Positions 17,890-52,399 of a DNA stretch of 53,579 nucleotides are shown here, in pieces. The position numbers and the translations under genes were made by a program. The notes under the pieces are model-generated. The model was not told the origin of the DNA. It made no database searches and was given only the letters and a program-made list of their open reading frames with translations. The first letter of the stretch is position 1. Each line of letters starts with the position of its first letter. The stretch comes from Planctomycetota bacterium (lineage in GTDB: Bacteria > Planctomycetota > UBA1135 > UBA2386). The stretch is from NCBI GenBank assembly GCA_020849665.1, contig JADLFX010000020.1, forward strand, positions 1-53,579. The letters run 5' to 3'.

Positions 17890-18266
17890 TATTGACCCGA
17901 CAAAGCGTGTTCCCGCCGGCACCGACACGTGCGACGGTCTCGCCCCGGCCCGACCGGGCCAGGGCGGAACTGGCAAAGGCCTTGCAGCCGACCGCCTGAC
18001 CGCTCGGCCGCCACGGCAGTCCATCGCATCCTGCAGCCGACCCGACGCGAGTGCGCCGGATCCGCTGTGGGTGTGCCCTGGCCGGACGTGGCAGCCCGCG
18101 GCGCCGGCATCGGCTCCGCTCCGCGCCAGGACCTCAGCCGCGGCGGTGACCGGCGGGGCACCCCCTTCCTCACGAACCAAGGACCGCACTTCAGCCATTG
18201 CGCGACCGGGGCGCGCGCCATGGCGTTTCCGACCGCCCCTCCGACACCTCCACTACGGAGGTAGCC

Positions 18267-19388
18267 ATGTACTTCCGCACCCACATCCAGCAGAACCAGC
18301 TCGGACTCCTGTTCCGGCGCGGTGACTTCCGCCGCGTCCTCCCCCCGGGGACCTGGACCCTGCCGGGCCTCTGGCTCGGCATGGACCGGCTCCAGATCGT
18401 CGGCGTCGACGCCACGCGTTTCGTGCATCCGGACCTGGCCACCCTGGTGCGGCAGCCCGAGCTGCGCGAGCGGCTCGTCGTGCTCGACCTCGCCGAGGAC
18501 CAGCGGGCGCTCGTATGGCGCGATGGCAGGATCCTCGACCTGGTCGGTCCCGGCCTCTTCGCCTACTGGCGTGAGCCGCACACCGTGAGGGTGGAGACCT
18601 TCTCGGTGGCGGACCTGCGCTTCCAGCACGCTCAGCTCGACGCAGTGCTCGACCTGCCCAATGCCAGGACCTACCTGGTCGCGGTGGACGTCGAGGCGCA
18701 CGAGCGGCTGCTGGTCCGCCGGGGCGGCGAGCTGATGACGACGCTGGGCCCCGGGCGGCACGCGTTCTGGACCCGTGCGGGCTCGATCTCCTGGAAGGCG
18801 GTCGATCTGCGCGAGCAGATCGCCGACGTCCAGGGTCAGGAGATCATGACCGCCGACAAGGTCACGCTGCGGCTCAACCTAGTGGTCAGCTGGCGGGTCG
18901 TCGACCCGGTAGCGTCGGCCACGCAGGTCGAAAACGTGGCGACCGCCGTCTACCGCGAGGCGCAGCTCGCTCTGCGCGCGGCGGTGGGCGGCCGGGACCT
19001 GGACCGGATCCTGGCCGACAAGGACGCCGTGGCCGCCGAGGTCCGCGACGGGCTCGCCCGCCGCGTCGCCACGTTCGGTGCCGCGGTGGCCGGCGTCGGC
19101 GTGCGGGACATCGTCCTGCCCGGCGACATGAAGCTGATCTTCAACCAGGTCATCGAGGCCCAGAAGCGCGCGGAGGCGAACCTGATCCGGCGCCGCGAGG
19201 AAACCGCGGCGGCCCGGTCCCAGGCCAACACCGCGCGGCTGCTCGCCGAGAACCCCGTGCTCCTGCGGATGCAGGAGCTCGAGTCGCTCGGGGAGATCCT
19301 CAAGGGCGCGAAGGTCACCTTCGTACTGGGCCAGGGCGACCTGGGCCAGCAGCTCAAGAACCTCGTCGCCACGGCTGGCGACGAGTAG
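18267..19388 (+). CDS. SPFH / band-7 (slipin-like) domain protein.
   Basis: Start trimmed to MYFRTHIQQNQLGLLFRRGDF. The central region (...IMTADKVTLRLNLVVSWRVVDPVASATQVENVATAVYREAQLALR...) and the coiled-coil tail are typical of SPFH proteins. Confidence 0.8.
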   Translation: MYFRTHIQQNQLGLLFRRGDFRRVLPPGTWTLPGLWLGMDRLQIVGVDATRFVHPDLATLVRQPELRERLVVLDLAEDQRALVWRDGRILDLVGPGLFAYWREPHTVRVETFSVADLRFQHAQLDAVLDLPNARTYLVAVDVEAHERLLVRRGGELMTTLGPGRHAFWTRAGSISWKAVDLREQIADVQGQEIMTADKVTLRLNLVVSWRVVDPVASATQVENVATAVYREAQLALRAAVGGRDLDRILADKDAVAAEVRDGLARRVATFGAAVAGVGVRDIVLPGDMKLIFNQVIEAQKRAEANLIRRREETAAARSQANTARLLAENPVLLRMQELESLGEILKGAKVTFVLGQGDLGQQLKNLVATAGDE

Positions 19389-19454
19389 CGGCGCCGCCGG
19401 CACCCCCGTGCCGGCGGCACGCATCCCGGGTGGATCCACTCGGCAGTCGCCGCC

Positions 19455-20726
19455 TCAGAGGATCTTGCGCGACGGGACCACGAGGTTGGCCAGCAGCAGG
19501 CCTGCGACGAGCGAGGCTGCCACCATGACCATGCGGAACGCGGCCGGCACGCCCGCGAGCACGTCCTCGCGCAGCAGCGCCCCGATGCTGGTGAGTCCCA
19601 GGCTGCCGGGCACCAGCATCAGGATGGCCGGCACGCTGGTGACCTGCGCCGGGCGCTGCGAGACGCGCGCGTAGACGTTGCTGTAGAGGCCCACGCAGAA
19701 CGCGCCGAACGCCGCGCCGAACGCGAGGTCGACCCGGGGTCCGAGCAGCGTCCCGCCGAAGCGCGCGGCGAAGAACGCCACGAGGCAGGCGGGCACGATC
19801 CATGGGACGTCGCGGAGCCGCGCGCGGAACAGGATGGCGAAGCTCACCGGCGCGACCAGCGCCCCCGCCCACAGCACCTCCGCCGGCAGCGGCGGCAGCA
19901 CCGGCGCGGCGGGCGGCTGCAGTCCGGCGGCTGCGGCGGCGGCGGTGCCCAGGCCCACACCCACGCCCAGCAGGAGCAGGGTCATGATCGCGCCCATCAG
20001 CCGCGCGGTCCCCGCGGCGAGGTGCTGGACCGCGAGTTCGTGCATGGCGACGGTGAGGCGCAGGCCGGGAAGCAGCACGATCAGCCCCGCGAGCATGGTG
20101 CGCCAGGGATCGAGGCCGCCGAGGTACACCGCGAACGCGTGGGTGAGCAGCGCCGCGCAGAACGCGGCCACCGCCTCGGAGAGTCGGGCCATGCGCTGGC
20201 GCAGCCCCATCCAACCCTCCACCACGCCGACCACGAGCCCGATACCCGCGGTGGCGACCACCTCGCGCGCCGTGCCACCGAGGAACACGTTCGAGGCGGC
20301 GCAGGCGGCGGCCGTGGCGACCAGCATGACCGGGGCGGGATAGCGCTCGCCCCGCGCCAGGACGTCGTCGATCCGCGCGATCCCCTCGGTCGGAGTGAGG
20401 TCGGCGTCGTACACCTGGTTGGCGATGCGATCGAGGTCGACGAGTCGGCCCAGGTCCGCGCTGCCCGGCTCCAGGCGGATCAGGTGGGTCGTGGCGGGGC
20501 CCCGCACCTGCAGGGTGGCGAAGAGGGCCGTGGGGGTGCAGAAGAACTCGCCGTGCACGCCGAGCCGCCCGGCCAGGAGGCCGAGCCACTCCTCGATCCG
20601 GTCGGTGGGCGTGCCGTAGCGGTGCAGGGCCTTGCCCAGGCGCAGGATGAACATGGTCGCCCCCTGGCCGTCGTCGACCTCCGGGATAGGCGACCGCGGG
20701 GCGTCGCCGGCTGCACCTCTGGCCAT
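19455..20726 (-). CDS. Threonine/serine exporter family protein (ThrE, DUF1212 + DUF3815 fused). The start is uncertain (Met30 or Met54 of the ORF).
   Basis: LRLGKALHRYGTPTDRIEEWL motif of DUF1212, followed by about 10 TM helices. The Arg/Gly-rich N-terminal extension of the ORF was rejected. Confidence 0.75.
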   Translation of the reverse strand: MARGAAGDAPRSPIPEVDDGQGATMFILRLGKALHRYGTPTDRIEEWLGLLAGRLGVHGEFFCTPTALFATLQVRGPATTHLIRLEPGSADLGRLVDLDRIANQVYDADLTPTEGIARIDDVLARGERYPAPVMLVATAAACAASNVFLGGTAREVVATAGIGLVVGVVEGWMGLRQRMARLSEAVAAFCAALLTHAFAVYLGGLDPWRTMLAGLIVLLPGLRLTVAMHELAVQHLAAGTARLMGAIMTLLLLGVGVGLGTAAAAAAGLQPPAAPVLPPLPAEVLWAGALVAPVSFAILFRARLRDVPWIVPACLVAFFAARFGGTLLGPRVDLAFGAAFGAFCVGLYSNVYARVSQRPAQVTSVPAILMLVPGSLGLTSIGALLREDVLAGVPAAFRMVMVAASLVAGLLLANLVVPSRKIL

Positions 20727-20851
20727 GCCACGGCGATTGTGGAGACGCGGATCCCGCGCCGCCAGGACGGGATGCCTGTCGTACCCGCCGCATGCCCCGC
20801 GTCTTTGCGACACCCCGCGACCGCGCGGACCACCCCTACCCGAGGACTCGC

Positions 20852-22132
20852 ATGCGCACCGCCGCCCTGATCGCCCTGCTCGCCCTGCCGCCCGCCGCCC
20901 AGGAGCCCAGGCCGGCGCCCCCCGCGGACGTCCTGGCCGTGCACGAGTGGGGCACCTTCACGACGATGGTGGGCTCCGACGGCGTCGCGCTGTGCGGACT
21001 GCACCACGAGGAAGAGGCCCTGCCCGCCTTCGTGCACTGTCCCAAGCCCCTGCAGGAGGGCTACCACCGGGGCCTCATGGCCAAGGGCCTGAACGTGCCG
21101 CTCAGCCACGTGACGCTGAAGCTCGAGACTCCGGTGCTCTACGTGCACACCAGGTCGGCCCGCCAGCTGCGGATCGAGGTGGACTTCGCGCAGGGCCTGC
21201 TCACGCAGTGGTATCCACGCGCACGCGGCAGCGGACCGACCCTGCCCGAGTTCCAGGGCCGGCTCGATCTGCGCCGCATCCGACACTCGACGCTGGCCTG
21301 GGACGTCGACGTCCTGCCCGCCGGGCTGCCGGCGGGCACCGCCTACCCGGACGTCGCGATCGACGACCCCTGGGCCATTGCCCGCGAGGTCGAGGCCGCG
21401 CCGCTGCGCGCCCGCGGCCCGGGCGCCGTGGAGGCCGAGCACTACGTGTTCTACCGGGGCCTGGGCACCCATGCGCTCCCGTTCGCGGCGCTCGCCCATG
21501 GCAAGGGCCGCGGCTCGTTCCGCAACCGCCACGACCATCTGATCCCGTCGGCGCTCGTTCTGGAGGTGCGCGGCGACCAGGCCCGCCTGCTCACGACCGG
21601 CACGATCGACGCGCAGGGAGCGTGGGACTTCGATCTCGCACCGGTGGAGCTGCGCCCCAAGGAGACCGTGGCCGAACTGGCTCACGCCGCCGTGCGGCGC
21701 GCCCTGGTCGAGGCGGGACTCGCCGCCGACGAGGCACGCGCGTTCGTGCGCACGTGGTCGCGCTCCTGGTTCCTGCAGGACGGCCTGCGCATCCTCTACG
21801 TGGTCCCGCGCGACCTCGTCGACCGCATCCTGCCCCTGCGGATCACGCCGCAGCCGGACCAGTTGGTGCGCGTGCTCCTGGGCCGGATGGAGGTGATCCC
21901 GCCCGAGACCGAGCGCGCCGTGGCCGAGACGCTCCTGGCCCAGCACCGGGGCGACGACGCGCGGGCGAAGTCCTGGGAGACCCTGCTCGCCCTCGGCCGC
22001 TTCCTGGAGCCGCACCTGCGCCGCGCCGCGGCCTCGGCCGAGGATCCCCTGGCGCGCGCGACGGCCACCAGGCTCCTGGGCGAGCAGGACGTCTCGCAGG
22101 ACCAGTTGCTCAAGGACCTGCGCGGCAACTGA
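20852..22132 (+). CDS. Secreted hypothetical protein, about 426 aa.
   Basis: Start trimmed to MRTAALIALLALPPAAQEP (signal peptide). Diverse composition. Divergent from the ThrE gene. Confidence 0.55.
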   Translation: MRTAALIALLALPPAAQEPRPAPPADVLAVHEWGTFTTMVGSDGVALCGLHHEEEALPAFVHCPKPLQEGYHRGLMAKGLNVPLSHVTLKLETPVLYVHTRSARQLRIEVDFAQGLLTQWYPRARGSGPTLPEFQGRLDLRRIRHSTLAWDVDVLPAGLPAGTAYPDVAIDDPWAIAREVEAAPLRARGPGAVEAEHYVFYRGLGTHALPFAALAHGKGRGSFRNRHDHLIPSALVLEVRGDQARLLTTGTIDAQGAWDFDLAPVELRPKETVAELAHAAVRRALVEAGLAADEARAFVRTWSRSWFLQDGLRILYVVPRDLVDRILPLRITPQPDQLVRVLLGRMEVIPPETERAVAETLLAQHRGDDARAKSWETLLALGRFLEPHLRRAAASAEDPLARATATRLLGEQDVSQDQLLKDLRGN

Positions 22133-22177
22133 GCGGCCGGCCCGCGCCCGGCGACCACTCCGCCCGGCGGCGGTGGC

Positions 22178-23209
22178 TCACCCTCCCCCGTGCGCCGAGC
22201 CCACGCTCCGACCCTCGGGCCGAGCGCGCCGGCGCAGCTGGCCGCACGCGGCCTCGACGTCGCCGCCGGTGGAGTTGCGGATCGTGGCCAGGATGCCGCG
22301 ACGCTTGATCTCGCGCACCATCTGCACGGCGCGCTCCTGGCGCGGGCGCGCGAAGGGCAGGCCTGCGACGGGGTTCCACAGGATCAGGTTCACGTAGCCG
22401 CGGGTGCCGCCCAACAACGCGCAGAGCTGCGCCACGTCCTGGTCGGAGTCGTTCACGCCCTCGAGCAGGGTCCACTCCCACTGCACGGGGACGCCCATGC
22501 GGCGGCCGTAGGCGTCGGCCGCGGCGACCAGCTCGGGGAGCGGGTCGCGTCCGGCGTGGGGCAGCAGCTCGCGACGGCGTTCCTCGTCGGCGCAATGCAG
22601 GGAGAACGCCAGGCAGGGCCGCACCTCGGCCTCGGCCATGCGGGCGAACGCGCGCACCGAGCCCACGGTGGACAGCGTCTGGCGCGTCGGGCTGATCAGC
22701 GCCTCGTGCTTCAGCGCCGCGACGGCGGCCAGGACGTTCTCCAGGTTGTGGGTCGGCTCGCCCATGCCCATGAACACGACCCGGTCGATCCGCATCTCGC
22801 GCCGCGCGTGCACGACCTGCTCGAGGATCTCCTGCGCCTCCAGGTTGCGCTTCACCCCGTCCAGGCCGCTGGCGCAGAAGCGGCAGCGCACCGCGCAGCC
22901 GACCTGCGACGACACGCACACGGCTCCCACCGGCATGGCCACGCTCTCCACGCGCTCGCCGTCCGCGAGGCCCACCACCATGCGTACCGAGCCATCGCCC
23001 GACGCCACGCGTTCCAGCACGCGCGAGCCCATGCCCTCGGCCTGCCAGCGCACCAGGAACTCCGCCTCGCCCCGGGTGAGCGTGTGGCCACGCGCCGCGA
23101 ACTCCTCGGGCGCCAGGGCGAGGCCCTGGAACACGAAGCGCAGTGCCAGCCGCGCCTTGGCCGGCGGCAGGGTCGCGCGCAGTGCCTGGAAGGAAGCGGT
23201 GCCGGTCAT
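22178..23209 (-). CDS. rlmN: Radical SAM 23S rRNA/tRNA adenine-C2 methyltransferase (RlmN/Cfr family).
   Basis: CVSSQVGCAVRCRFCASG (CxxxCxxC radical-SAM cluster motif), GMGEP, and a C-terminal second Cys region. Start trimmed to MTGTASFQ. Confidence 0.8.
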   Translation of the reverse strand: MTGTASFQALRATLPPAKARLALRFVFQGLALAPEEFAARGHTLTRGEAEFLVRWQAEGMGSRVLERVASGDGSVRMVVGLADGERVESVAMPVGAVCVSSQVGCAVRCRFCASGLDGVKRNLEAQEILEQVVHARREMRIDRVVFMGMGEPTHNLENVLAAVAALKHEALISPTRQTLSTVGSVRAFARMAEAEVRPCLAFSLHCADEERRRELLPHAGRDPLPELVAAADAYGRRMGVPVQWEWTLLEGVNDSDQDVAQLCALLGGTRGYVNLILWNPVAGLPFARPRQERAVQMVREIKRRGILATIRNSTGGDVEAACGQLRRRARPEGRSVGSAHGGG

Positions 23210-23274
23210 CGGGGCAGGAAGGTTGCGGGAGGCGGTCCGCCCTGGCAAGGGGGCGCGGGGGCTAGGATGCCGCC

Positions 23275-23892
23275 GTGGACCGCGACCCTCCCATGGAGGC
23301 GCTCGACCTCACCCAGCGCCAGCTGCGCTCGGCGCAGGACGGCGACCGGAGCGCGCTGGAGGCGCTCTTCGCGCGCTACCTGCCAAGAGTGCGGGCGATG
23401 GTGGCCGCGCGGATGGGTCGCACGCTGCGCGGCCTCGCCGACCTCGACGACCTGGTGCAGGAGACGCTGCAGGACGCCCTGCTCGGCCTGCGCCAGATCG
23501 ACCAGCGCAACGAGGGGCTCTTCGCCCACTGGCTGGCACGCTGCGTCGAGAACAACCTGCGGGACCTCCTGCGTCGCGGCCAGGCGGCCAAGCGGGGCGG
23601 CGGCAAGGCGCACGCCTTCGCGGACCTGGAGCAGAGCCTGTCGGAGTCGCTCTTTCCCGGCCGCGAACTCTCGGTGAGCCAGGTGGTGCAGGGCCGCGAA
23701 CTCGAGGAGCGGGTCGAGGCCGGGATGCTGCGGCTCGGCGCGCGCTACCGCGAGGTGATCGTGCTGCGCGTGCATGGCGGCCTCGGCTTCCGCGAGATAG
23801 CGGAGGTGATGGGCCTGCCCAGCGAGAACACGGCGAACGTGCTCTTCCTGCGCGCCCGCCAGCGGCTGCGCGAGCTCCTGGAGCCCGGTTAG
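23275..23892 (+). CDS. ECF-type sigma-70 family RNA polymerase sigma factor.
   Basis: Region 2 (LDDLVQETLQDALLGLRQ) and region 4 HTH (YREVIVLRVHGGLGFREIAEVMGLPSENTANVLFLRARQRLRELL). 205 aa. Confidence 0.8.
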   Translation: MDRDPPMEALDLTQRQLRSAQDGDRSALEALFARYLPRVRAMVAARMGRTLRGLADLDDLVQETLQDALLGLRQIDQRNEGLFAHWLARCVENNLRDLLRRGQAAKRGGGKAHAFADLEQSLSESLFPGRELSVSQVVQGRELEERVEAGMLRLGARYREVIVLRVHGGLGFREIAEVMGLPSENTANVLFLRARQRLRELLEPG

Positions 23893-23935
23893 CGCGGCCG
23901 CTGGCGCGGGGTCGGCCCCGGCGGGCCGACCGCCC

Positions 23936-25807
23936 TCAGCTCCCGGCTCCGAGCGCGACCGCCTGCCGCGCCAGCTCCGCGGCTTCCGCCGCGGCACCGG
24001 CGACGTCGCGCAGGCGCTGCACGATCGCGCCCAGGGAGCTCGTGGTCGTGCGCGCCGGACCCGCGTCGGTCCAGGACGCCTCGAGACCGACCTTGACCAC
24101 CACGCCGGACTTGTCGAAGCCGACCTCGGGCTTGAGCGCCAGGGTGCGCTTGTCCTGCACGGTCACGGTCGCGGAGATGCCGGCCAGCGTGTCGCGCAGG
24201 GCCTCGCCGTCGCGCTCACTCAGGGCGATCAGCGTGGCGAGCCCCGCCTCTCCGAGCGCCGCCGCGTCGAACTCGATCGTGGTCTCGCGCGCGAACACGG
24301 GCAGCTTCCACTCGCGCTTGAGGATCAGGGTCGTGGCCCGGCGGGTCATGCTGCCGCTGCGTTCCTCGAACACGGTCTTGATCGCCCGCGTGGTGGTCAT
24401 CGCCACCTCGATTCCCCTGCCGAACCCGGCCTCGTTGGCCTGCTTGGCTCCGCCGACGTCGATCTCCTTCAGGCTGCCGAGCTTCACGCCGGCCGCGAAG
24501 CTGGCGCCCACCGCGTGGGACAGGGTCAGCTCGATCCGCTCCGCGGAGGCGCCGTAGGACTGGTAGGTGCGCACCGTGACCTGGTAGGCGCCGTTCACCT
24601 TGCCGCCCAGTTCGAAGCCGATCGCGTCGCTGAACGTCTTGCTGCCGACCTTGAGGCTCAGCTCGCCGGTCAGCGAGAAGCGCGCCTCGACGCCGTCGCC
24701 GCTCTCGCGCACGAACATGGCCTCCGTCACGAGCCGCACCGCGATGCGCTCGAGGGCGTCGCCGGCGCGCCGGGCGACGGCGAACGCCGCCTCGGCCGCC
24801 GTCAGGATCCGCTCCATGGCCAGCTCGGCAACGCGGCTGCCCAGCGCCGGCCGTGCCGCACGCAGGGCCTGCAGCGAAGCGCGCAGGCCGAGCACGGCGC
24901 GGCGGGCGTGCTGCAGGCGGGCGAGGTTCTCGGTGTTCAGGGCCGAGAACGCGTTGGGCAGCGCCTGCCGCAGGCCGATGCCGAGCAGGCCGCGCGCGAC
25001 CTCGCCGGGCGAGGCGAAGCGGTAGATCTCGTCGGCGCCCAGGCCGATTCCGGCCTCCACGCCCACGTCGTCGGTGGCCTTGACGCCGCAGAGCACCGCC
25101 ACGTCGCGTCCGATCGCGACCAGGTACTCGTCGGCCTCGCGGGTGATCTTCGCGCTGTAGCTCACCGAGCCGCCCAGGGAGAGCGGACCGAAGACGGGCA
25201 CCATCACCTTGCCGCTGAGCTTCGCGAGCAGGCCATCGCCGCTCGAGTTGAGCGCCGTGGTCAGCGCGCCGACCAGATCACGCTCGCGGACCTGTTCCCA
25301 CGCCTCGGCTCCGCGGCAGGGTCCGAGGTCGATGCGCAGGAACGAGAAGTCGGGGGCGGGAGCCGCCTCGGGTGCGGGCGTGCTCGGCGCGGCTTCGATC
25401 GAGATGCGCAGGCCGTTGCTCGCCCGCAGGGCGACCCTGCCGTCGAGCCCCTGCTCGAGCCCGAAGCCCTGGGCCACCAGGCTCCGGCCCGACCACGCGG
25501 CGAGGTCCACCGGGATGGCGAAGCGCCCCTCGGCATCGAAACGGCCGTGGGTGAGCGCGGGCATCGTGCCGGCGTCCGGGGCGACGGCGAGGCAGGCCCC
25601 GTGGCCGGCCTCTCCGCCGCGCACCTCCAGCGTGGCTGGGCTGGTGACCTCGTTCAGGCGGACTTCGAGCAGCTCGGAACGCAGCGCAGGGATGCTGGCG
25701 AAGCCGTGGTCCCGCACCGAGCTGACCTGCCACGGACCTTGGGCCAGCCCAGGGAGGGCCAGGCCAGCCAGGGCGAGAACCACCTTCAACGTCTTGTGTG
25801 CAAACAT
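23936..25807 (-). CDS. Large secreted hypothetical protein, Ala/Gly-rich, about 623 aa.
   Basis: Start trimmed to MFAHKTLKVVLALAGLALPGLAQG (signal peptide); the upstream Arg-rich extension was rejected. Convergent with the sigma factor gene, divergent from the kinase gene. Confidence 0.6.
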   Translation of the reverse strand: MFAHKTLKVVLALAGLALPGLAQGPWQVSSVRDHGFASIPALRSELLEVRLNEVTSPATLEVRGGEAGHGACLAVAPDAGTMPALTHGRFDAEGRFAIPVDLAAWSGRSLVAQGFGLEQGLDGRVALRASNGLRISIEAAPSTPAPEAAPAPDFSFLRIDLGPCRGAEAWEQVRERDLVGALTTALNSSGDGLLAKLSGKVMVPVFGPLSLGGSVSYSAKITREADEYLVAIGRDVAVLCGVKATDDVGVEAGIGLGADEIYRFASPGEVARGLLGIGLRQALPNAFSALNTENLARLQHARRAVLGLRASLQALRAARPALGSRVAELAMERILTAAEAAFAVARRAGDALERIAVRLVTEAMFVRESGDGVEARFSLTGELSLKVGSKTFSDAIGFELGGKVNGAYQVTVRTYQSYGASAERIELTLSHAVGASFAAGVKLGSLKEIDVGGAKQANEAGFGRGIEVAMTTTRAIKTVFEERSGSMTRRATTLILKREWKLPVFARETTIEFDAAALGEAGLATLIALSERDGEALRDTLAGISATVTVQDKRTLALKPEVGFDKSGVVVKVGLEASWTDAGPARTTTSSLGAIVQRLRDVAGAAAEAAELARQAVALGAGS

Positions 25808-25970
25808 GTTGGAACTCCTGTCTCTGGGTTCTGGCCGGACCATCCCGGCCTTCCCCCTGGCTGGCGCAGGCCGGCGGCGAACCTGACACCTCCCGCACGG
25901 GTTTTTCCTCGGGCCAGGCCGCCGGCCGTGGCCGGGATGCGGGTCGGGGCCGATCATCCGGCCCGGGAAC

Positions 25971-27647
25971 ATGGCCCCCGACCCGGCAGGCGAAGCGAGA
26001 ACCGCATTCCTCCAGCGCTACGCGGCGGACCTGGAGCGCGGGAGCGTCCAGGCCCTTGCCGCCTACCAGGCGCTCTTCCCCGGGTTCGAGCGCGAGGTGG
26101 CGGAGGAATATGCCTGCCTGGAGGACGAGGGGGCGCAGACCGCACCGGTCGCGGCTCCGCCCGCCGAGTCAGGCCGCCGCCACCTGGGCAAGTACCTGCT
26201 CGAACGCGAGCTGGGGCGCGGCGGGCAGGCGGTGGTCTACCTCGCCGAAGACGTCGCCCTGGGCCGGCCGGTGGCTCTGAAGGTCCTGCGTGCGGGCACG
26301 ATCGAGTTCGTGTCGCCCGACGACCTCCGGCGCTTCCGCCGCGAGGCCGAGGTCTCGGCGCGGCTCGAGCACCCGGCCATCTGCAGCGTGTACGAGGCCG
26401 GCGAGGCCGAGGGCGTGCCGTACATCGCGATGCGCTACGTACGCGGCACGACGCTGGCTCAGCACATCGCGGCGTGCCGGAGCAGCGGACTGGCCAGCCG
26501 CAGCGCGGCGCTGCCCGCCGGCACGCCGGCGACGGACACCACGAGCTCCTCGCGACGCGGCGAGTTCGACGCCTTGCTGCGGCTCTTCGAGCTCTGCGCG
26601 CGGGCCCTGCACTTCGCCCACGAGCACGGGCTCGTGCACCGCGACGTGAAGCCCGGCAACGTCATGGTGACCGAACAGGGCGAGCCCGTGCTGCTCGACT
26701 TCGGCCTGGCGCGCGTGGAGGCCGAGGAGCACTCGCTCACCGCCTCGGGGGTGGTGTTCGGCACGCCCTACTACATGGCCCCGGAGCAGGTGCGCGGCGA
26801 GGCGCGGGCCGTCGACCGGCGCACCGACGTCTACGGGCTCGGCGTGAGCCTCTACGAGACCCTGACCCTGCAGCGGCCATTCGAGGCGCCGTCGCGCGAG
26901 GCGCTCTACCGGCAGATCCTGCTGCACGAGCCGCGGCCGGTGCGTGCCGTCAACCCGCGCGTGCCGCGCGACCTGCAGATCGTGGTGGAGACCGCCATGG
27001 CCAAGGAACCCGCGCGGCGCTACCAGACCGCCCTGGACCTGGCCGAGGACCTGCGCCGCTTGCGGCAGCGCGAGCCGATCGTGGCGCGCGCCGCGGGACC
27101 GCTGCTGCGCGGGTGGCGCTTCGCCCAGCGCCGCCCCGCGGTGGCGGTCCTGCTCGTGGCGCTGGCGGCGAGCCTCGCGACCGGCGCCGCGCTCCTGGCC
27201 GCGAGCAACCGGCTCCTGAGCGCCAAGGTCGGCGAGTTCACGCGGCTCGCGGACCTGCGCCACGTGGGTCTGCTGGAGCAGGAACTCGACCGGCTCCCCG
27301 CGTACCTCCCCGCCCACGAACCAGCGCTGCGCCGCTGGCTCGAGGACGCACGGCGGGTGCACGGACGGCTGCCCCTGCACCGGCTCACCAGGGAGCGGCT
27401 CACCGCCGACACCGGCGAGGATCCGGTCGCGCGGCAGTGGCAGCTCGACGCCCTGGCGGAGCTGATCGCGCGGCTCGAGCGCTTCGCCGGCCACCGGATC
27501 GCGCTCGCCGAGCGGCGCCTCGAACACGTGCGCAGCGTGGCGCGCCGCACTCTGGAGGACGCATCCGTGGCATGGCGCGCGGCGATCGCCGCGATCGCGG
27601 ACCCGGTCCGCGCGCCGCGCTACCGAGGCCTCAGGATCGAGCCGTAG
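25971..27647 (+). CDS. Serine/threonine protein kinase with one TM segment and a C-terminal helical region. Ends at a TAG that is in frame with the downstream FGE ORF.
   Basis: Hanks-type motifs: LGRGGQAVVY (Gly loop), VALKVL, HRDVKPGNVMV (catalytic loop), DFGLAR, GTPYYMAPE. TM helix RRPAVAVLLVALAASLATGAALLA. Confidence 0.85.
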   Translation: MAPDPAGEARTAFLQRYAADLERGSVQALAAYQALFPGFEREVAEEYACLEDEGAQTAPVAAPPAESGRRHLGKYLLERELGRGGQAVVYLAEDVALGRPVALKVLRAGTIEFVSPDDLRRFRREAEVSARLEHPAICSVYEAGEAEGVPYIAMRYVRGTTLAQHIAACRSSGLASRSAALPAGTPATDTTSSSRRGEFDALLRLFELCARALHFAHEHGLVHRDVKPGNVMVTEQGEPVLLDFGLARVEAEEHSLTASGVVFGTPYYMAPEQVRGEARAVDRRTDVYGLGVSLYETLTLQRPFEAPSREALYRQILLHEPRPVRAVNPRVPRDLQIVVETAMAKEPARRYQTALDLAEDLRRLRQREPIVARAAGPLLRGWRFAQRRPAVAVLLVALAASLATGAALLAASNRLLSAKVGEFTRLADLRHVGLLEQELDRLPAYLPAHEPALRRWLEDARRVHGRLPLHRLTRERLTADTGEDPVARQWQLDALAELIARLERFAGHRIALAERRLEHVRSVARRTLEDASVAWRAAIAAIADPVRAPRYRGLRIEP

Positions 27648-27656
27648 ATCGGCCTC

Positions 27657-28571
27657 GTGCCTTTGGGTCCGGACCCCGACTCGGGCCTGCACGAGTTCGC
27701 GCACCTGGCCTCGGGGGAGGTCCCGCGCCGCAACCCGGACGGCCGGCTCGAGCGGAGCGCGCGCGGCGCGATCGTCCTGGTCCTCCTGCCGGGAGGCACG
27801 TTCACGATGGGCGCCACCCTTCCGGACGCCGCGCATCCCGCGGGCTCGCCCAACGTCGACCTCCAGTGCCTGCCGGCCGAGCGTCCGCCCCATCCGGTCA
27901 CCCTCGCCCCGTTCTTCATGGCGAAACACGAAGTGACGCAGGGGCAGTGGCTGCGCTGCAAGGGCGAGAACCCGAGCCAGCTGCGCCCCAATCACCCGCA
28001 GGGCGATCTGGAGTTCAGCGAGCTGCATCCGGTCGACACGGTCAGCCAGCGCTCGGCCCGCGAGCTCTTCGCCGTCCACGGCCTGATCGTGCCGACCGAG
28101 GCGCAGTGGGAGTACGCCGCCCGCGCCGGCACCACCTCCCCGTGGTGGACCGGGGACGCACCGCACGAGGTGGTGCGCGGCGGCAACGTGCTCGACAGCT
28201 CCGGCCTGCGCGCGGTACCCGAGCCGCTCCCCGCAGATGCGGTCGAACGGCGCGTCGACGACGGGTTCGTGCTCACCGCGCCCGTGGGCTCCTTCGCCGC
28301 CAATGCGTTCGGCCTGCACGACACGATCGGCAACGTCGGCGAGCTGGTGCTCTGCGAGCAGCTCCGCTACGAGAACCCGGTCCGGCCGGGAGACGGGTTG
28401 CGCCAGGACCCGGAGGCCAGGGTCCGCGATCCGCGCCGGGTGATCCTGCGCGGCGGCGGCGCGCTCTATCCGATCGGCGAGGCACGCAGCGCCGCGCGCC
28501 AGAGCGTGACCGAGGACACGACCGCGGCCGAGATCGGCGTGCGGGCCGCCCGAGCGCTCGACCCGAGGTGA
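27657..28571 (+). CDS. Formylglycine-generating-enzyme (FGE/SUMF1-type sulfatase-modifying) domain protein.
   Basis: FMAKHEVTQGQW..., HPVDTVSQRSARELFAVHGLIVPTEAQWEYAARAG, FGLHDTIGNVGELV and RVILRGGGA blocks typical of the FGE-sulfatase fold. Same reading frame as the kinase, 9 nt after its TAG. Confidence 0.8.
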   Translation: MPLGPDPDSGLHEFAHLASGEVPRRNPDGRLERSARGAIVLVLLPGGTFTMGATLPDAAHPAGSPNVDLQCLPAERPPHPVTLAPFFMAKHEVTQGQWLRCKGENPSQLRPNHPQGDLEFSELHPVDTVSQRSARELFAVHGLIVPTEAQWEYAARAGTTSPWWTGDAPHEVVRGGNVLDSSGLRAVPEPLPADAVERRVDDGFVLTAPVGSFAANAFGLHDTIGNVGELVLCEQLRYENPVRPGDGLRQDPEARVRDPRRVILRGGGALYPIGEARSAARQSVTEDTTAAEIGVRAARALDPR

Positions 28572-28586
28572 TCCGCGGCGGCCTCG

Positions 28587-29534
28587 CTACGAGGCCGCCC
28601 GCGCGGCGATCCCCCGGCCCGGCGCGAGGTACTCGCCCATCGGCAGCACGGTGAAGCGCGCCCGCAGCGCCGTCAGGGTGTCCTCCAGGATCGCCTCCTT
28701 GCGCGCCCAGGCGACATCCATCCCGGGGAAGAAGTCGAGGTCGCGGTGTTCGCCGTTGCCGACGAAGTCGAGCGAGTGCAGCAGGTAGCTCGGCGCCACG
28801 CCGCGCAGCCGGCAGAGGCCGAGGCCGAGGCGCAGGTAGAACGACGCCAGGCCGCGCGAGAAGCGCGACAGCCACACCACGTAGCTCGTGTGGAACGGCG
28901 TGCGCAGGAGCGGGATCGTGGTCACCGGCAGCGACCACAGCTCGGGGGCTCCGGGATAGCGGCTCGGCCGCAGGCTCTGGAACGCGTCCTTGATCCCGCC
29001 GTACATCGCCTTGCGTTGCTCCCGCTCCGCCTTGCTCATCTTCGAGTGGAAGAAGTAGTAGGCGCGGCACAGCGGGCCCAGGAAGGTCGGCAGCGGCGAG
29101 CCGTCGTAGTGGAATCCGCCCTCGCGCAGGATCGCGGGCAGCCGGGGCGACCACGCGAATCCCGGCGCGCGGAATCCCTTGGGTCGCACGCCGAGGCGTG
29201 CCTCGATCAAGTCCGCGGCGCGCAGCACCTCCTCGCGCATGCGCTCGGGCTGCAGCGCGGCGAAGGTCGGTTCGTGGTGCCAGGAGTGGCAGCCGATCTC
29301 GTGGCCGCGCTCCACGAAGGGCCGGATCGCGGCGACCCGGTCGGGATGCTCCAGGTCGGCGGCGATCACGAAGAGCGTGAGGCGCAGCCCGTGCCGGTCG
29401 AGCATCGCCAGCAACCGCGCGCACACCTCCGGGACGACGCTGCGCGTGGCCTCCCAGCCGGGCCGGCCGGCGGCGCGCATGTAGGTCCACGCGTCGTCGA
29501 GGTCGAGCGAGAGCGTGGCCGGCGGCAGGCTCAT
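28587..29534 (-). CDS. Polysaccharide deacetylase (NodB-homology, CE4-like).
   Basis: Start trimmed to MSLPPATLSLDLDDAWTYM. The LTLFVIAADLEHPD...GHEIGCHSWHHE segment contains the Asp and His motifs of NodB-type deacetylases. Overlaps the upstream gene by 4 nt. Confidence 0.75.
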   Translation of the reverse strand: MSLPPATLSLDLDDAWTYMRAAGRPGWEATRSVVPEVCARLLAMLDRHGLRLTLFVIAADLEHPDRVAAIRPFVERGHEIGCHSWHHEPTFAALQPERMREEVLRAADLIEARLGVRPKGFRAPGFAWSPRLPAILREGGFHYDGSPLPTFLGPLCRAYYFFHSKMSKAEREQRKAMYGGIKDAFQSLRPSRYPGAPELWSLPVTTIPLLRTPFHTSYVVWLSRFSRGLASFYLRLGLGLCRLRGVAPSYLLHSLDFVGNGEHRDLDFFPGMDVAWARKEAILEDTLTALRARFTVLPMGEYLAPGRGIAARAAS

Positions 29535-30868
29535 CTGGCCAGCACCTCGCGCCGGGTGTGCGGACCGCCCAACTGCCGGGCCAGGAAGCGTTCCGCCGCA
29601 CGGCGCGCCAGCCCCACGCAGTCGCTGTTGTTCAGGATGCAGGCCGAGAGCTGCGCGTTGTTGACCACGTACACCTTGCCGGGCACGACCTCGCGCGGCG
29701 GCCGGACCGGCGCCGCGCCCACGCGCGGGATCGGCTGGATGAAGCGCGCCCGCTGCACGCTCTGGTGCAGCAGCCAGTCGCCGCCCGCCGCCGGGCGGAT
29801 GCGGCGCAGGTCGCGCAGCGCCGCCTCGGCGATCGCCGCGTCGTCCTGGCGGTGGATCGGATCCCCCGTGGGCGCGTAGCGGGGCAGGTAGACCAGCGCG
29901 TGGCCGTTGGTCTCCGCGCTGGCGTCGACCACGTTCGTGGTCTCGATCACGCCGGTGAGGCAGGAGCGGTCGTCCACCACGTTGAGGATGTAGTTGGCCG
30001 AGAGCGGCCGGCGCCCCACGGCCACGGTGCAGGCCACGCCCAGGTAGGCGGTGTCCTGCAGGCGCAGGCGCTCGGCGTCGGGCAGCATCGGCAGCAGCTC
30101 GGCGACCATCGGGTTGTGCATCGTGAGGAACACCGTGTCGGCCGGGAACGTGCCCGCGGGCGTGTCCACCTCCACGCCGTCGCGCACCAGGCGCACCGAC
30201 TCGACCTTGGAGCCCTCCACCACGCGCACGCCGAGCGCGGCGAGGCGCTCCAGCATCCGCCCGAGGATCGTGCGATAGCCGCCGCGCACGTAGCCGAAGG
30301 TGTCGCCGGAACCTCCCGCCTTGCGGGCCGAGGCAAGGCGCCGGATGGTCGCGAAGATGAAGCGCGCCGACACCCATTCCGCGGCGCTGCCGAGCTTGGC
30401 ACGCAGCAGGTGGCGCCAGAAGTCCCGGTAGCCGGGTTCGCCGCACCACGCACGCAGCCATTCGGCGGAGGTCTGGCTGTCGAGCCTGTCGTCCTCGAAG
30501 GCCCGCGGGGCACGCAGCGCCATCCAGCCGATCCGGAGCTTGGCGGAGAGCGGCAGCGTGGGCAGCCGCAACAGGTCGAGCGCGGTGTTCAGCGGACAGA
30601 GTCGGTCGCCGATCCAGCAGCCCTGCTGCGTGCGCCGCCACACCAGCTCGCCACCCAGCCCCAGCTCCTCGAGGAGTTGCAGCAGCTCGCGGTCGGAGGG
30701 CAGGATGACGTGGTAGAAGCGGTCCCAGACGAAGTCGTGGAAGCGTTGGGACAAGGACAGGCCGCCCGCGCTCTGCGCGTCGAGCACCGTCACCTGCAGC
30801 CCGCCCTGCGCCAGCTGGTGGGCGAGGGCGAGTCCGGTCATCCCGGCTCCCGCGACGACGGCCCTCAT
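29531..30868 (-). CDS. FAD-dependent oxidoreductase (amine-oxidase / protoporphyrinogen-oxidase-like fold).
   Basis: Start trimmed to MRAVVAGAGMTGLALAHQLAQGGLQVTVLDAQ (Rossmann GxGxxG dinucleotide-binding motif). 445 aa. Confidence 0.7.
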   Translation of the reverse strand: MRAVVAGAGMTGLALAHQLAQGGLQVTVLDAQSAGGLSLSQRFHDFVWDRFYHVILPSDRELLQLLEELGLGGELVWRRTQQGCWIGDRLCPLNTALDLLRLPTLPLSAKLRIGWMALRAPRAFEDDRLDSQTSAEWLRAWCGEPGYRDFWRHLLRAKLGSAAEWVSARFIFATIRRLASARKAGGSGDTFGYVRGGYRTILGRMLERLAALGVRVVEGSKVESVRLVRDGVEVDTPAGTFPADTVFLTMHNPMVAELLPMLPDAERLRLQDTAYLGVACTVAVGRRPLSANYILNVVDDRSCLTGVIETTNVVDASAETNGHALVYLPRYAPTGDPIHRQDDAAIAEAALRDLRRIRPAAGGDWLLHQSVQRARFIQPIPRVGAAPVRPPREVVPGKVYVVNNAQLSACILNNSDCVGLARRAAERFLARQLGGPHTRREVLAR

Positions 30869-31491
30869 GGCGTTCGGTGCGGGAGCTCCACCACGCGGTG
30901 GCACTTCTCGCACGGGAACCGACCGCGCACCGGCAGCTCCGCATCGGCCCCCAGCTTGAGGACCGGGTGGCCGCAGCGGCAGACGAGGCCCCGCACGCGT
31001 GCCGGGTTGCCGATCGCCAGGCCGTGCGGCGGCACGTCCCTCGTGACCACGCTGCCCATGCCGATCATCGAGAACTCGCCCAGCGTCACGCCCGGTCCGA
31101 TCACCGCGCCGGCGCCGATCGTCGTGCCGCGCCGGACCGTGGTCGTGAGCGTCTCCTCGGTCGGATCCGAGGTCTGCAGATCCTGCAGGTCCGGGTCGGT
31201 CGAGCGCGGGAAGCGGTCGTTGGTGAACACGGTGTGCGCCGAGATCATCACGCCGTCCTCGATCGTGACGCCGGCGCAGATGTAGACGACGGCGTTGATC
31301 TTCACCAGATCGCCGATCACCACTTCGTAGGCGACGTAGGTCTTCTCGCCGATGATGCACTTGGCGCCGATGCGGGCGTTCTTGCGGATGTGGACGTTGT
31401 CCCACACGCTCGTGCCCGGCCCCAGCACCACGCCGTCCTCGACCAGTGCGGTCGGGTGCACGCGCGGCGGCGGCAGCTCCTGCGGCTTCAC
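30865..31491 (-). CDS. Left-handed beta-helix (hexapeptide-repeat) sugar N-acetyltransferase, WbpD/PglD-like.
   Basis: GTG start 2 nt after the upstream stop. Hexapeptide repeats (IGAKCIIGEKTYVAYEVVIGDLVKINAVVYICAGVTIEDGVMIS...). About 208 aa. Confidence 0.75.
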   Translation of the reverse strand: MKPQELPPPRVHPTALVEDGVVLGPGTSVWDNVHIRKNARIGAKCIIGEKTYVAYEVVIGDLVKINAVVYICAGVTIEDGVMISAHTVFTNDRFPRSTDPDLQDLQTSDPTEETLTTTVRRGTTIGAGAVIGPGVTLGEFSMIGMGSVVTRDVPPHGLAIGNPARVRGLVCRCGHPVLKLGADAELPVRGRFPCEKCHRVVELPHRTP

Positions 31492-31493
31492 GG

Positions 31494-32480
31494 TCACACC
31501 TCCTGCCACTGGCGCTCGCGCGCCGAGCGGTAGGCGGCCTCGATCACGCGCACCGAGAGGATCGCGTCCTCGGCGGTGATCACCGGCGCCTCGGCGCCGC
31601 GGATGTTGCGCGCGAAGTTGCGCAGCTGGTTGCGGAACGCCGCCTTCTTGTCGTAGCCGGAGCCGAACACGGTCCACTCGGCGTCGCCGTCGCGCTTGTA
31701 GCGCGACACCTTCCAGCCCACTTCGATCGTGCCCTTCGCACCGTACAGACGCACGAAGCTGGGCACCTCCTTGTGGACGCTCCACGAGAGGTCGATCGCG
31801 CCCACCGCGCCGGCCTCGGTCTCCAGGAGCAGGCGGCAGGTGTCCTCGACCTCGATCGGCTGCACGTTGCGGGCGAACTGCGCCTGCACCCAGGCGATCG
31901 GCCCACACAGGTAGCGGGCCACGTCGACCGAGTGGCTGCCATTGTCGATCAGCACGCCCCCGCCGGACACCTCGCGCCGGCTGTTCCAGCGCTTGGTCAT
32001 GTCCACGCGTGCGCAGAACACGTTCTCGAAGAGGAGCAGGTCGCCGATGGTGCCCTCGTTGAGCAGGGCCCTGGCCTTGGCCATGTCGTCGACGAAGCGG
32101 AACTTCGACCCCATCATCAGCGTGCGCCCCGTGGTCGCCGCGGCCGCGAGCATGCGCTCCGCGGCCCGCGCCGTGGTCGTGAGCGGCTTCTCGCACAGCA
32201 CGTGCTTGCCGGCGCGCAGCAGCTGCACCGCCAGCTCCTCGTGGGTCACGGGCGGGGTCAGCACTAGGGCCGCGTCGATGCCGCCCTCGTCGAGCATCGC
32301 GCCGAGCGTGGGAAACGGCGGCACGCCCGTCTGGCGTGCCACGGCGTCGCGGCGTGCGGCGTCGACGTCGACCACGCCGGCGAGCTGCAGCTCCGCCACC
32401 TCGCCGATGGCGCCCAGGTAGGACGCGGCGATGCCGCCGCAGCCCACCACGCCCACGCGGATCCTGGCCTGGCCGGTCAC
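31494..32480 (-). CDS. Gfo/Idh/MocA-family NAD(P)-dependent sugar oxidoreductase (WbpB/GnnA-like).
   Basis: GTG start overlapping the upstream TGA. N-terminal Rossmann IRVGVVGCGGIAASYLGAIG...GKHVLCEKPL. The Arg/Gly-rich 5' extension of the ORF (31494-34274) is a different-frame artefact. Confidence 0.8.
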   Translation of the reverse strand: MTGQARIRVGVVGCGGIAASYLGAIGEVAELQLAGVVDVDAARRDAVARQTGVPPFPTLGAMLDEGGIDAALVLTPPVTHEELAVQLLRAGKHVLCEKPLTTTARAAERMLAAAATTGRTLMMGSKFRFVDDMAKARALLNEGTIGDLLLFENVFCARVDMTKRWNSRREVSGGGVLIDNGSHSVDVARYLCGPIAWVQAQFARNVQPIEVEDTCRLLLETEAGAVGAIDLSWSVHKEVPSFVRLYGAKGTIEVGWKVSRYKRDGDAEWTVFGSGYDKKAAFRNQLRNFARNIRGAEAPVITAEDAILSVRVIEAAYRSARERQWQEV

Positions 32481-34834
32481 CGTACCACCGCCTTCGCGGG
32501 CGTCAGGCGCGCCGCTTCCTCCCGGATCACGCGGGTCACGAAGTCCACGTGCTCCTGGGTGTAGAGCTCGTTGATCGGCAGCACGATCACCCGGTCGAGG
32601 GCCTGGGTCGTGCCGGGGTAGTCCTTGCGCTGGAACACCGGCTGCGGCCGGATCCGACCGTCGGCGCCGCGCAGCGGCAGTGCCGAGACCGGCGACGCGT
32701 TCCAGTCGTGGAAGAGCTGGCACTCGAACGCCGGCTTCTGGATGTAGCGGGGCACGCAGAACACGCCGCGTTCCTTCATCTTCTTGCCGAGTTCCACCGC
32801 GCCGCCGGGCACGACCGCGGGGTCGACCATCAGCGCGTACTTCCACCACGAGTGCTTCACCCCGGCCGGCACCTGCGGCAGGGTCAGGCCCGGGACGCCC
32901 TGCAGGCCCGCGGTGATCGCGGCGGCCACGTCGCGGCGGCGCTGCACCACCCACTCGACCTTGTCGAGCTGCGCCAGCGCCACGGCGCCCTGCAGCTCGG
33001 TGAGCCGGTAGTTGAGCGCGGGGAAGTAGTGGTCGGGCTTGGGATCGCCGTAGCCCCAGGCCTTGTTCACGAACAGGAACACGTTGCGGGCCAGGGTGTC
33101 GTCGTTGGTGAGCACGATGCCGCCCTCGCCGGTGGTCATGTGCTTGCCCTGCTGCAGGGAGAACGAGGCGATCTCGCTCAGCGTGCCCACCCTGCCGATC
33201 CGGTCCTCGGCGTAGAACGCCTGGGCCACGTCCTCGATCACCGGGATGCCCTTGCTCCGCGCGAGAGCACGCACCGGCGCCATGTCGACCGGCAGGCCGA
33301 AGAGGTGGGTCACCACGATCGCCTTCGTGCGCTCGCCGATCCTGGCCGCGATCGTCTCGGCGGTGACGTTCAGGGTCCACGGGTCGACGTCTGCGAAGAT
33401 CGGCACGCAGCCCTCGTAGAGGATCGGCGTGAGCGCCCCCATGTCGGTGATCGGCGTGGTGATCACCTCGTCGCCGCCCTTCAGCTTCAGCGCCGCCAGC
33501 GCGCAGTGGAACGCGGCCGACCCCGACGCGCAGGCGATCGCGTGCTTCACGCCGTAGCGTTTGGCGAACTCCTTCTCGAAGCGGGCCACGAACGTGCCCT
33601 TCGTGGAGTTCAGCGTGCCGCTGCGGATCGCGCGGGCCGCCATGAGGATCTCGTGGTCGCCCATCTCGCGGCCGGTCCAGTCGCCGTCGGAGGGCAGAAG
33701 GACCGCGCCGGGCGCCGCGGCCGGCGCCGCGGGACGCTCGGCTTCCTGCCGGCGCCGCGGCCCCTTCGCGAGCACGGCGAGGATCCGGCTCGCGCTCGTT
33801 CCGTCGCCGTACGGGTGCTGCCAGGTGCGGGACCCGGCCAACACCTGGCCGATGCCACGCTCCGCGCCCTCGGGGCGCACGCCGGCCAGCAGGTTCGCGC
33901 CGCAGTCGATGGTCTCTGGGCGCTCGGTGCTGGTACGCAGCGTGACGCAGGGGGTGCCGAGGATGCACGCCTCCTCCTGCACTCCGCCCGAGTCGGTGAC
34001 GACCACGCGGGCCTGCTCCTGCAGCGCCAGGCTCTCGGCCAAGCCGACCGGTGCGACCGCCGAGAACGAGCCCGGCAGGCCGACTCCGTGCGCCTGCATC
34101 TGCCGCGCCGTCCGCGGGTGCACCGGGAAGAGCACGCGCAGGCCCTGGGCCGCCGCGGCGCGGTGCACGCCGTCCAGCAGGCCGCGCAAGAGCGCGGGGT
34201 CGTCGACGTTCTCCTCGCGGTGCAGGGTCAGGTAGACGAACTCCTTCCGGCGCAGCTCGAAGCGGCCCAGGCACTGGGCCGCGGCGGCGGCGGTGGGGCG
34301 CAGCCCCGCCACGACGTCGGCGATGGTGTTGCCGACCACGTGGCAGGCCTCCATCGGCAGGTTCTCGCGGCGCAGGAGGTCGCGCTGCAGCTCGGTCGGG
34401 CAGAACAGCGCCTCGGCGAGGTGGTCGACCTGGATGCGGTTCTTCTCCTCCTGCATGCGGCGGTCGAACGAGCGCAGGCCGGCCTCGACGTGCGCCACCG
34501 GGATGCCGAGCTTGTCGGCGGCGAGGGCGCCGGCCAGCGTGGAGTTGGTGTCGCCCTGCACGACCACCCAGTCGGGCCGCTCCGCCGCCAGGACCTCGCC
34601 CAGCCGCTCGATCATCCGCCCCACCTGCGCTGCGGGGGCGAGCGAGCCGATGCCGAGGTTGTGCTGCGGCTGGGCGAGCGCCAGCTCGGCGAAGAAGCGC
34701 GCGTCCATCTCCGGGCTGTAGTGCTGCCCGGTGTGGATCACGACCAGGGGAGTGCCCGCACCGGTGGCGGCGCGGATGAGGGGTGAGAGCTTGATGATCT
34801 CGGGGCGGGTGCCCAGGACGAAAGCGAGCTTCAT
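32477..34834 (-). CDS. Bifunctional fusion: UDP-N-acetylglucosamine 2-epimerase (WecB/WbpI-like) at the N-terminus, DegT/DnrJ/EryC1-family PLP sugar aminotransferase (WbpE/GnnB-like) at the C-terminus.
   Basis: Start trimmed to MKLAFVLGTRPEIIKLSPLI...HTGQHYSPEMD (WecB). After an approximately 25-aa Pro/Ala linker: MGDHEILMAARAIRSGTLNSTKGTFVARFEKEFAKRYGVKHAIACASGSAAFHCAL (DegT). Single uninterrupted ORF of about 785 aa. Confidence 0.75.
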   Translation of the reverse strand: MKLAFVLGTRPEIIKLSPLIRAATGAGTPLVVIHTGQHYSPEMDARFFAELALAQPQHNLGIGSLAPAAQVGRMIERLGEVLAAERPDWVVVQGDTNSTLAGALAADKLGIPVAHVEAGLRSFDRRMQEEKNRIQVDHLAEALFCPTELQRDLLRRENLPMEACHVVGNTIADVVAGLRPTAAAAAQCLGRFELRRKEFVYLTLHREENVDDPALLRGLLDGVHRAAAAQGLRVLFPVHPRTARQMQAHGVGLPGSFSAVAPVGLAESLALQEQARVVVTDSGGVQEEACILGTPCVTLRTSTERPETIDCGANLLAGVRPEGAERGIGQVLAGSRTWQHPYGDGTSASRILAVLAKGPRRRQEAERPAAPAAAPGAVLLPSDGDWTGREMGDHEILMAARAIRSGTLNSTKGTFVARFEKEFAKRYGVKHAIACASGSAAFHCALAALKLKGGDEVITTPITDMGALTPILYEGCVPIFADVDPWTLNVTAETIAARIGERTKAIVVTHLFGLPVDMAPVRALARSKGIPVIEDVAQAFYAEDRIGRVGTLSEIASFSLQQGKHMTTGEGGIVLTNDDTLARNVFLFVNKAWGYGDPKPDHYFPALNYRLTELQGAVALAQLDKVEWVVQRRRDVAAAITAGLQGVPGLTLPQVPAGVKHSWWKYALMVDPAVVPGGAVELGKKMKERGVFCVPRYIQKPAFECQLFHDWNASPVSALPLRGADGRIRPQPVFQRKDYPGTTQALDRVIVLPINELYTQEHVDFVTRVIREEAARLTPAKAVVR

Positions 34835-35171
34835 GGCTGTGTTGCTGCGTCGTGCTGCCGTGGTGCTGGATCGGTCGTGGACGGTTGCGCGACCGCTCCC
34901 CTTGGAGCGGTGATCTGGCGGGACCGGGAACCGGGTGGTGCGGTGGCTGCGGCGCGGCTCGTTCCGGCCTCCCTCCCCCCGCAGAACCCTAGCCGTTGCC
35001 TCGGCAGGAATCGTCTGCAACTTGGTAGCAGAGGCGTCGCGTGGCGCCGCGGTGCGCCGAAACGAGGCAGGCACAGGGATCTCGTGCCGGGATCGGCGGC
35101 GGCGCGCCTCTGGCGTCGCCGCGCTGGCATCGCCGCTGCCGCGGCGGCGGCCGCCGCTGGCGACCGGCGGC

Positions 35172-52365: not shown

Positions 52366-52399
52366 ACGGGGCGGCGCCGCATGCGGCGCGACGTAGTCT

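Follow-up and report, generated by a model that had tools for sequence, protein, structure and literature searches.

The SUMF1 domain is the third commonest partner domain of planctomycetal kinases, and in single-pass planctomycetal kinases it is found on the periplasmic side (PMC11032199). NCBI names such proteins 'bifunctional serine/threonine-protein kinase/formylglycine-generating enzyme (FGE) family protein'. A gene of that kind is located at positions 25971-28571 of contig JADLFX010000020.1 from a Planctomycetota bacterium (assembly GCA_020849665.1); the whole stretch of 53,579 nucleotides that was analysed is called the window in the following. Its parts are arranged in the order known from the family, with a kinase domain, one transmembrane (TM) helix and an FGE-like domain outside the membrane, and the relatives P0002-P0004 are matched over the full length. 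In contrast to these, the polypeptide of the window is cut at residue 559 by an in-frame TAG, whereas the assemblies L001 and L087 from the same species encode ordinary members of the family. We consider it very probable that the stop is a real, lineage-specific nonsense mutation (CAG, Gln559, to TAG) in the gene of a single-pass transmembrane Hanks-type receptor kinase.

Translated in one frame, the region contains 866 sense codons and a single internal stop. An earlier note on the window had let the kinase open reading frame (ORF) end at the TAG 27645-27647 and the FGE ORF begin in the same frame at GTG 27657, and both coordinates were confirmed. Between them there are only the three in-frame codons ATC GGC CTC (I G L). 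The second ORF, which runs from this GTG to the TGA at 28569-28571, is recorded in GenBank as a separate protein of 304 aa (MCC6670288.1, formylglycine-generating enzyme family protein). Both Pfam domains are complete and lie one on either side of the TAG. FGE-sulfatase (PF03781) was found at residues 44-302 of the 3' segment (27777-28553), where it covers positions 5-255 of the 255 positions of the profile (E 3.5e-33). An exact look-up of the 558-aa kinase gave no record, a search of the literature for the run and protein accessions gave no result, and no paralogue of the kinase gene could be identified within the window.

The 5' part is composed of an N-terminal helical region, the Hanks-type kinase domain, the TM helix and a periplasmic helical stalk. 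The catalytic motifs of the kinase are complete (G-loop GRGGQA, K104, E125, HRDVKPGN, DFG and APE). In an alignment the residues K104, E125, H223-R224-D225, K227, N230, D243-F244-G245 and P271-E272 are invariant and common to 67 homologues. By all defining motifs of its sequence the 5' part is therefore assigned to the Hanks-type Ser/Thr protein kinases. Kyte-Doolittle windows of 19 residues with values above 2.0 begin solely at residues 389-394. Since the motif RFAQRR precedes the TM segment on its N-terminal side, the whole part behind the segment, and with it the FGE-like domain, is predicted to lie outside the cytoplasm.

The structure was modelled with AlphaFold2 on the intact protein of the same species (mean predicted local distance difference test score, pLDDT, of 89). 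A continuous helix at residues 389-441 holds the sole hydrophobic segment, and the helical stalk continues to residue 543 (helices 389-543). The globular C-terminal module opens with the strands 562-567 and 574-578, which are predicted with a pLDDT of about 98. The stop at 559 is thus situated three residues ahead of the first strand of that module, and V563, the start of the 304-aa ORF, falls within this strand. According to the hydrophobicity scan the 304-aa ORF possesses no hydrophobic N-terminus, signal peptide or TM segment. The model also contains a conserved N-terminal extension ahead of the kinase domain (residues 1-70, positions 25971-26180) with the pattern FLxxYxADxxxGxxRxLxxYQxLFPGxE. 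It comprises three helices (pLDDT 80-96), is common to most members of the family and has no match in Pfam.

The paired cysteines in the C-terminal segment of FGEs are catalytic and bind copper. The FGE-like domain of the window belongs to the same Pfam family as the enzymes from human (SUMF1), T. curvata and S. coelicolor (PDB 6s07, 2q17, 1y1e), and it matches 6s07 with an E value of 6.5e-12. Aligned to 6s07, the window has RGGGALYP---IGEAR opposite the segment KGGSFLCHESYCNRYR of the FGE, so that both catalytic cysteines are absent. Catalytic FGEs exhibit the motif CxxxxC (C-H-E-S-Y-C in T. curvata), whereas the window has Tyr and Ile at these positions. Because both cysteines are replaced and the three residues between them are deleted, the domain is, as far as its sequence tells, not an enzyme. 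It is most likely a ligand- or partner-binding sensor outside the cytoplasmic membrane, like its PvdO and PorK/GldK-type relatives.

Homologues were searched with the fused translation as query, and the 120 best of more than 7,000 relatives were examined. The closest ones, P0002 (858 aa), P0003 (852 aa) and P0004 (865 aa), show 54-56% identity at a query coverage of 99-100%, and the close homologues are single polypeptides of 820-920 aa. Among these best 120 both domains are found on one protein with the exception of two entries, namely the window's own kinase half and a kinase of 963 aa without FGE domain. No homologue among the 120 is split at the site of codon 559. In an alignment of 68 sequences the column of the stop is mostly occupied by Gln (56 sequences, 82%), otherwise by Ile (6), Val (3), Arg (2) or Trp (1), and never by a gap. 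The stop does not fall into a variable linker; it interrupts the conserved motif Y-x-G-L-x-[LI]-x-P-Q-L-G-L-[VI]-P-L-G-x-D-P-x-S-G-L-x-E-F. The TAG of the window allele disrupts the connection of kinase and FGE-like domain on one polypeptide, which is undisrupted in L001, L087 and the orthologues. With two conspecific strains and 82% of the 68 homologues in agreement, CAG (Gln) is read as the ancestral codon 559.

The earlier note had proposed a Pkinase-FGE fusion of about 866 aa that is broken by one nonsense codon. This is borne out by the single-polypeptide homologues as well as by P0122, an intact protein of 866 aa from the same species. A comparison with orthologous loci, also suggested there, found one gene in orthologues and sister strains alike, and not the two separate genes which the note had considered. 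Two further searches were less fruitful: a 30-nt exact pattern of the junction (with N at the variable base) had no match in JGI metagenome contigs or GTDB representative genomes, and a search of GTDB genomes with the intact protein returned generic kinase-domain relatives only (at most 47% identity, with patterns dominated by PYYMAPEQ), which are uninformative on the junction.

The 90%-identity cluster of both halves has P0122 as its third member, a protein from the Logan assembly of run SRR21694149, and further contigs of the species were found through exact look-ups of neighbouring window proteins. Four conspecific assemblies, including the window, cover the junction with 99.2-99.96% nucleotide identity and no indels (Table 1). 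The nonsense allele is real and inherited, as two independent assemblies carry TAG, and it is polymorphic in the species, as the two other conspecific assemblies keep CAG and the open frame. P0122 is uninterrupted and differs from the window solely by Gln at the position of the stop and by L631P.

Within the gene, five states set the window and L085 apart from L001 and L087: the nonsense codon, P631L and three synonymous ones. P631L is a second non-synonymous C>T change, which is linked to the stop and departs from the family consensus 'VDP'. All nine linked single nucleotide polymorphism (SNP) states of the window haplotype are present in L085, which differs at two other sites. A second contig of the same run ERR15459716, L089, has 2 SNPs relative to the window in 8.7 kb, giving a total of 4 SNPs in about 14 kb; the genome in that run is near-identical, yet not identical, to that of the window. 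The differences between window and L001 are mostly synonymous ones in third positions and therefore reflect real divergence. Contigs of several further runs, which end short of the junction, carry the linked SNPs of L001 type, and this linkage suggests that the TAG haplotype is a minority lineage. No indel was found in more than 60 kb of pairwise comparison between the window and 15 conspecific contigs, and no frameshift-like frame switches are seen elsewhere in the window in a plot of GC content at third codon positions (GC3). The window is therefore a clean assembly.

The same species was encountered in Logan assemblies of at least 14 public runs (SRR, ERR, DRR) with 99.1-100% nucleotide identity and no indels. 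These conspecific loci (L001 and L085-L099) span positions 17936-32210 of the window, and between 28 and 30 kb at least three groups of haplotypes can be told apart. The organism appears to be widespread and fit for population-level analysis. Position 79 of L085 (window 26850) encodes L294I in the kinase domain, at a site where at least 90% of 68 homologues have Leu; this one observation is too little to claim a relaxed constraint on the kinase half.

Of the three explanations offered by the earlier note, which were a sequencing error, a recent pseudogenising mutation and a stop that is read through, the recurrence of TAG in the independent ERR15459716 and of CAG in two conspecifics supports the mutation. 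The intact gene is taken to code for a kinase in the cytoplasm that is connected, through a TM helix and a helical stalk in the periplasm, to an FGE-like sensor domain without catalytic function. One lineage of the species gained a C>T exchange at 27645, by which Gln559 became a stop. Ribosomes would stop at the UAG and release a kinase of 558 aa, still anchored in the membrane and devoid of the extracytoplasmic sensor. All kinase motifs are retained in this product, as are the TM helix and the greater part of the stalk. The ORF of 304 codons, if translated by re-initiation at GTG 27657, would remain in the cytoplasm, on the wrong side of the membrane, because it lacks a signal peptide. It would also miss the residues just ahead of and at the start of the first beta-strand, and for both reasons the fragment would probably be non-functional. 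Some wild-type protein may still be made at a low level, through basal leakage with near-cognate tRNA-Gln at the UAG. The gene would then be a young pseudogene or a sensor-less allele within a large, redundant kinase family.

An experimental precedent for such a loss of the sensor is PknS of X. citri. Without its periplasmic domain this kinase was autophosphorylated without stimulus and did not complement a pknS deletion (PMC13147305). The allele belongs with the nonsense pseudogenes and strain-level loss-of-function polymorphisms known from bacteria: its stop arose by one C>T transition, is carried by some strains only and affects a member of a large paralogous family. Compared to ordinary nonsense pseudogenes nothing is unusual about the present case, except that pipelines call the halves as two normal genes.

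Several observations weigh against a nonsense mutation that inactivates the sensor. The frame behind the stop is undecayed (GC3 0.93, no stops or indels). The branch leading to the TAG haplotype has 1 missense and 3 synonymous changes, and the branch of the intact L087 has 3 non-synonymous and 7 synonymous ones, counts which are too small for a dN/dS-type or selection test. As the two branches resemble each other, a loss of constraint is not demonstrated; the mutation is young, or the allele is tolerated, and no decay is visible downstream of the stop. Its occurrence in at least two samples may mean that the allele is tolerated, or even useful. ERR15459716 and the metagenome-assembled genome (MAG) that contains the window may share a site or project. 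To judge from the assemblies alone a systematic, platform-specific miscall may be conceived, with GATC following the stop. Finally, the check for suppressor tRNAs was confined to the window.

It is improbable to us that the TAG lineage makes two functional proteins, a sensor-less membrane kinase and an FGE-like protein obtained by termination-reinitiation at GTG 27657, as might be concluded from the two genes annotated by NCBI. The downstream ORF is indeed intact with coding-type GC3, its start codon follows the stop after 9 nt, and the allele was seen in two samples. A missing Shine-Dalgarno sequence at 27657 is not diagnostic, since these sequences are weak at all genes of this region. However, none of the best 120 homologues is split here and all but two of them carry both domains, and the stop is part of a conserved motif and not of a linker. 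In the parent protein the domain lies outside the cytoplasm (PMC11032199), yet the FGE ORF has neither signal peptide nor TM segment and begins within strand 562-567 of a confidently folded module. The independently initiated FGE domain, which the earlier note had combined with the truncated kinase, is, with no export signal and a start inside the first beta-strand, probably not a working product.

Less probable still is that the UAG is decoded by a suppressor tRNA, by pyrrolysine or by programmed leakiness, with the full-length kinase as the main or regulated product. In E. coli a UAG with A as the next base is comparatively easy to suppress, and near-cognate reading of UAG by tRNA-Gln may insert Gln at a low level. 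Such reading would bring back the ancestral residue, in a frame that is open and conserved past the stop; a spanning peptide would then read ...GLRIEP-Q-IGLVPLGPDPDSGLHEFAHLASGEVPR. Positive evidence for read-through was not obtained. At least seven further coding-type ORFs of the window end in TAG; in the extracytoplasmic function (ECF) sigma factor gene this stop comes 7 residues past the Pfam domain, and behind the TAG of a gene of the two-DUF1080 type a new gene follows that has a signal peptide of its own. Nor is the stop at codon 559 conserved, since all 68 homologues and two of the four conspecific assemblies have a sense codon there. No suppressor tRNA is encoded in the window, whose sole tRNA is a tRNA-His. 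Folding of the 120 nt behind the stop is no better than that of shuffled sequences (z = +0.46), and there was no match in Rfam. With TAG ending other genes, an unconserved stop, no downstream structure and only tRNA-His in the window, genome-wide or programmed recoding is unlikely. Two runs of stop-separated ORFs in one frame (46097-50962 and 50977-53577) were considered as further interrupted genes and rejected, since no segment lacks a start of its own, nor a signal peptide where one is expected.

A variant of this explanation would be an amber allele that is kept as a 'tuned' receptor, in which most of the kinase is sensor-less and constitutively autophosphorylating and leaky decoding of UAG-A supplies a little wild-type receptor. 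We regard this as very doubtful; if true, strains would differ in their signalling set-point through one suppressible codon.

An error or consensus artefact of the MAG, with an organism that truly has CAG, is hardly to be expected. In its favour, the window belongs to a MAG, just one base differs, and directly behind the site lies GATC, a frequent methylation motif by which some base-callers can be misled. However, an independent assembly of another run gave a contig that has this T on the haplotype of the window along with 2 other differences, which makes a random sequencing or assembly error very unlikely. The mostly synonymous divergence from L001 and the comparison to 15 conspecific contigs without indels point in the same direction.

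Table 1. Location of the kinase gene, its parts and its neighbours in the window, and conspecific assemblies that cover the junction.
Feature	Window positions	Strand	Identity to window	Remarks
5' part, receptor kinase gene	25971..27647	+		558 aa from ATG 25971, ends with TAG 27645-27647; GenBank MCC6670287.1, Ser/Thr kinase
3' part, same gene	27648..28571	+		hairpin motif GLVPLGPDP..EF, then non-catalytic FGE-sulfatase-like domain
Hanks-type kinase domain	26199..27026	+		residues 77-352, Pfam PF00069, E 4.3e-38
Sole transmembrane segment	27132..27206	+		about residues 388-412, RFAQRR at N-terminal side
Amber codon 559	27645..27647	+		TAG from CAG (Gln), C>T transition at 27645
Codon 631	27861..27863	+		CTC (Leu) in TAG lineage, CCC (Pro) in both CAG strains
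ECF sigma factor, PF07638	23275..23892	+		ends in TAG; part of conserved trio
Secreted protein	23936..25807	-		623 aa, N-terminal signal-peptide-like segment, no Pfam match; between sigma gene and kinase, divergent from kinase
Window (NCBI MAG)	whole window		reference	codon 559 TAG
L085, run ERR15459716	26772-32208		99.963%, 2 SNPs/0 indels	codon 559 TAG; gene caller also gives two ORFs
L001, run SRR21694149	25254-29696 (4443 bp)		99.53%, 21 SNPs/0 indels	codon 559 CAG, 866 aa intact
L087, run SRR27422803	26633-30727		99.24%, 31 SNPs/0 indels	codon 559 CAG, uninterrupted partial ORF of 645 aa

The kinase gene is preceded by the genes of a secreted protein and an ECF sigma factor, and this trio is conserved in L002 (3444-8598) and L004 (3144-8559), where the kinases are intact. 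In L002 (624 aa) and L004 (671 aa) the gene of the secreted protein is placed and oriented as in the window, and its product may interact with the FGE-like domain in the periplasm as a partner or ligand. In L003 a sigma factor adjoins a second kinase. ECF systems that are linked to kinases are known, and the trio of the window resembles these (PMC7826278). In pairs of the ECF43 group such as PknS-EcfK from X. citri and PknT-EcfP from V. parahaemolyticus, the gene of a TM Hanks-type kinase with an extracytoplasmic domain likewise lies close to that of an ECF sigma factor; the window, L002 and L004 have the sigma factor gene two genes upstream of the kinase. In contrast to the ECF43 pairs, a secreted-protein gene separates the two, and a phosphorylation of the sigma factor is putative here.

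The sigma-2.2 motif DxxDxxQE is replaced in ECF43 by uncharged residues with a conserved phospho-acceptor Thr (consensus QTTA) (PMC13147305). The acidic motif is kept in the window (DLDDLVQE) as well as in L004 (DVDDLVQE) and L002 (ELEDLVQE), and membership of the window sigma factor in ECF43 is therefore not supported.

The earlier note had remarked that the gene pair lies directly upstream of a convergent glycan-modification cluster. That is positionally true for the downstream side, where the convergent genes encode a polysaccharide deacetylase, an amine oxidase, a hexapeptide transferase and an epimerase-aminotransferase fusion according to Pfam. However, this adjacency is not conserved at the orthologous loci, at which the conserved neighbours are the ECF sigma factor and the secreted protein upstream. 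The fusion is an ORF of 865 aa (32477-35074, minus strand) with a UDP-GlcNAc 2-epimerase (residues 110-435) and a DegT/DnrJ aminotransferase (residues 473-791), and it looks like a fused sugar-nucleotide modification enzyme of the downstream glycan cluster. Two ORFs, 20792-22132 (plus strand, 446 aa) and that of the secreted protein, are conserved with coding-type GC3 and have no Pfam match at E<=0.001.

MCC6670287.1 and MCC6670288.1 each represent one half of a single receptor kinase gene, and a flag for a disrupted gene should be added to them. The case also indicates that, even when no reads are at hand, public run-level assemblies allow real nonsense polymorphisms of MAGs to be distinguished from errors of assembly. 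In biological terms the allele is a routine and ordinary loss of a sensor at the strain level, in a kinase family that is large and redundant. The trio of sigma factor, secreted protein and kinase is the more interesting lead on how planctomycetal kinases with FGE domains signal.

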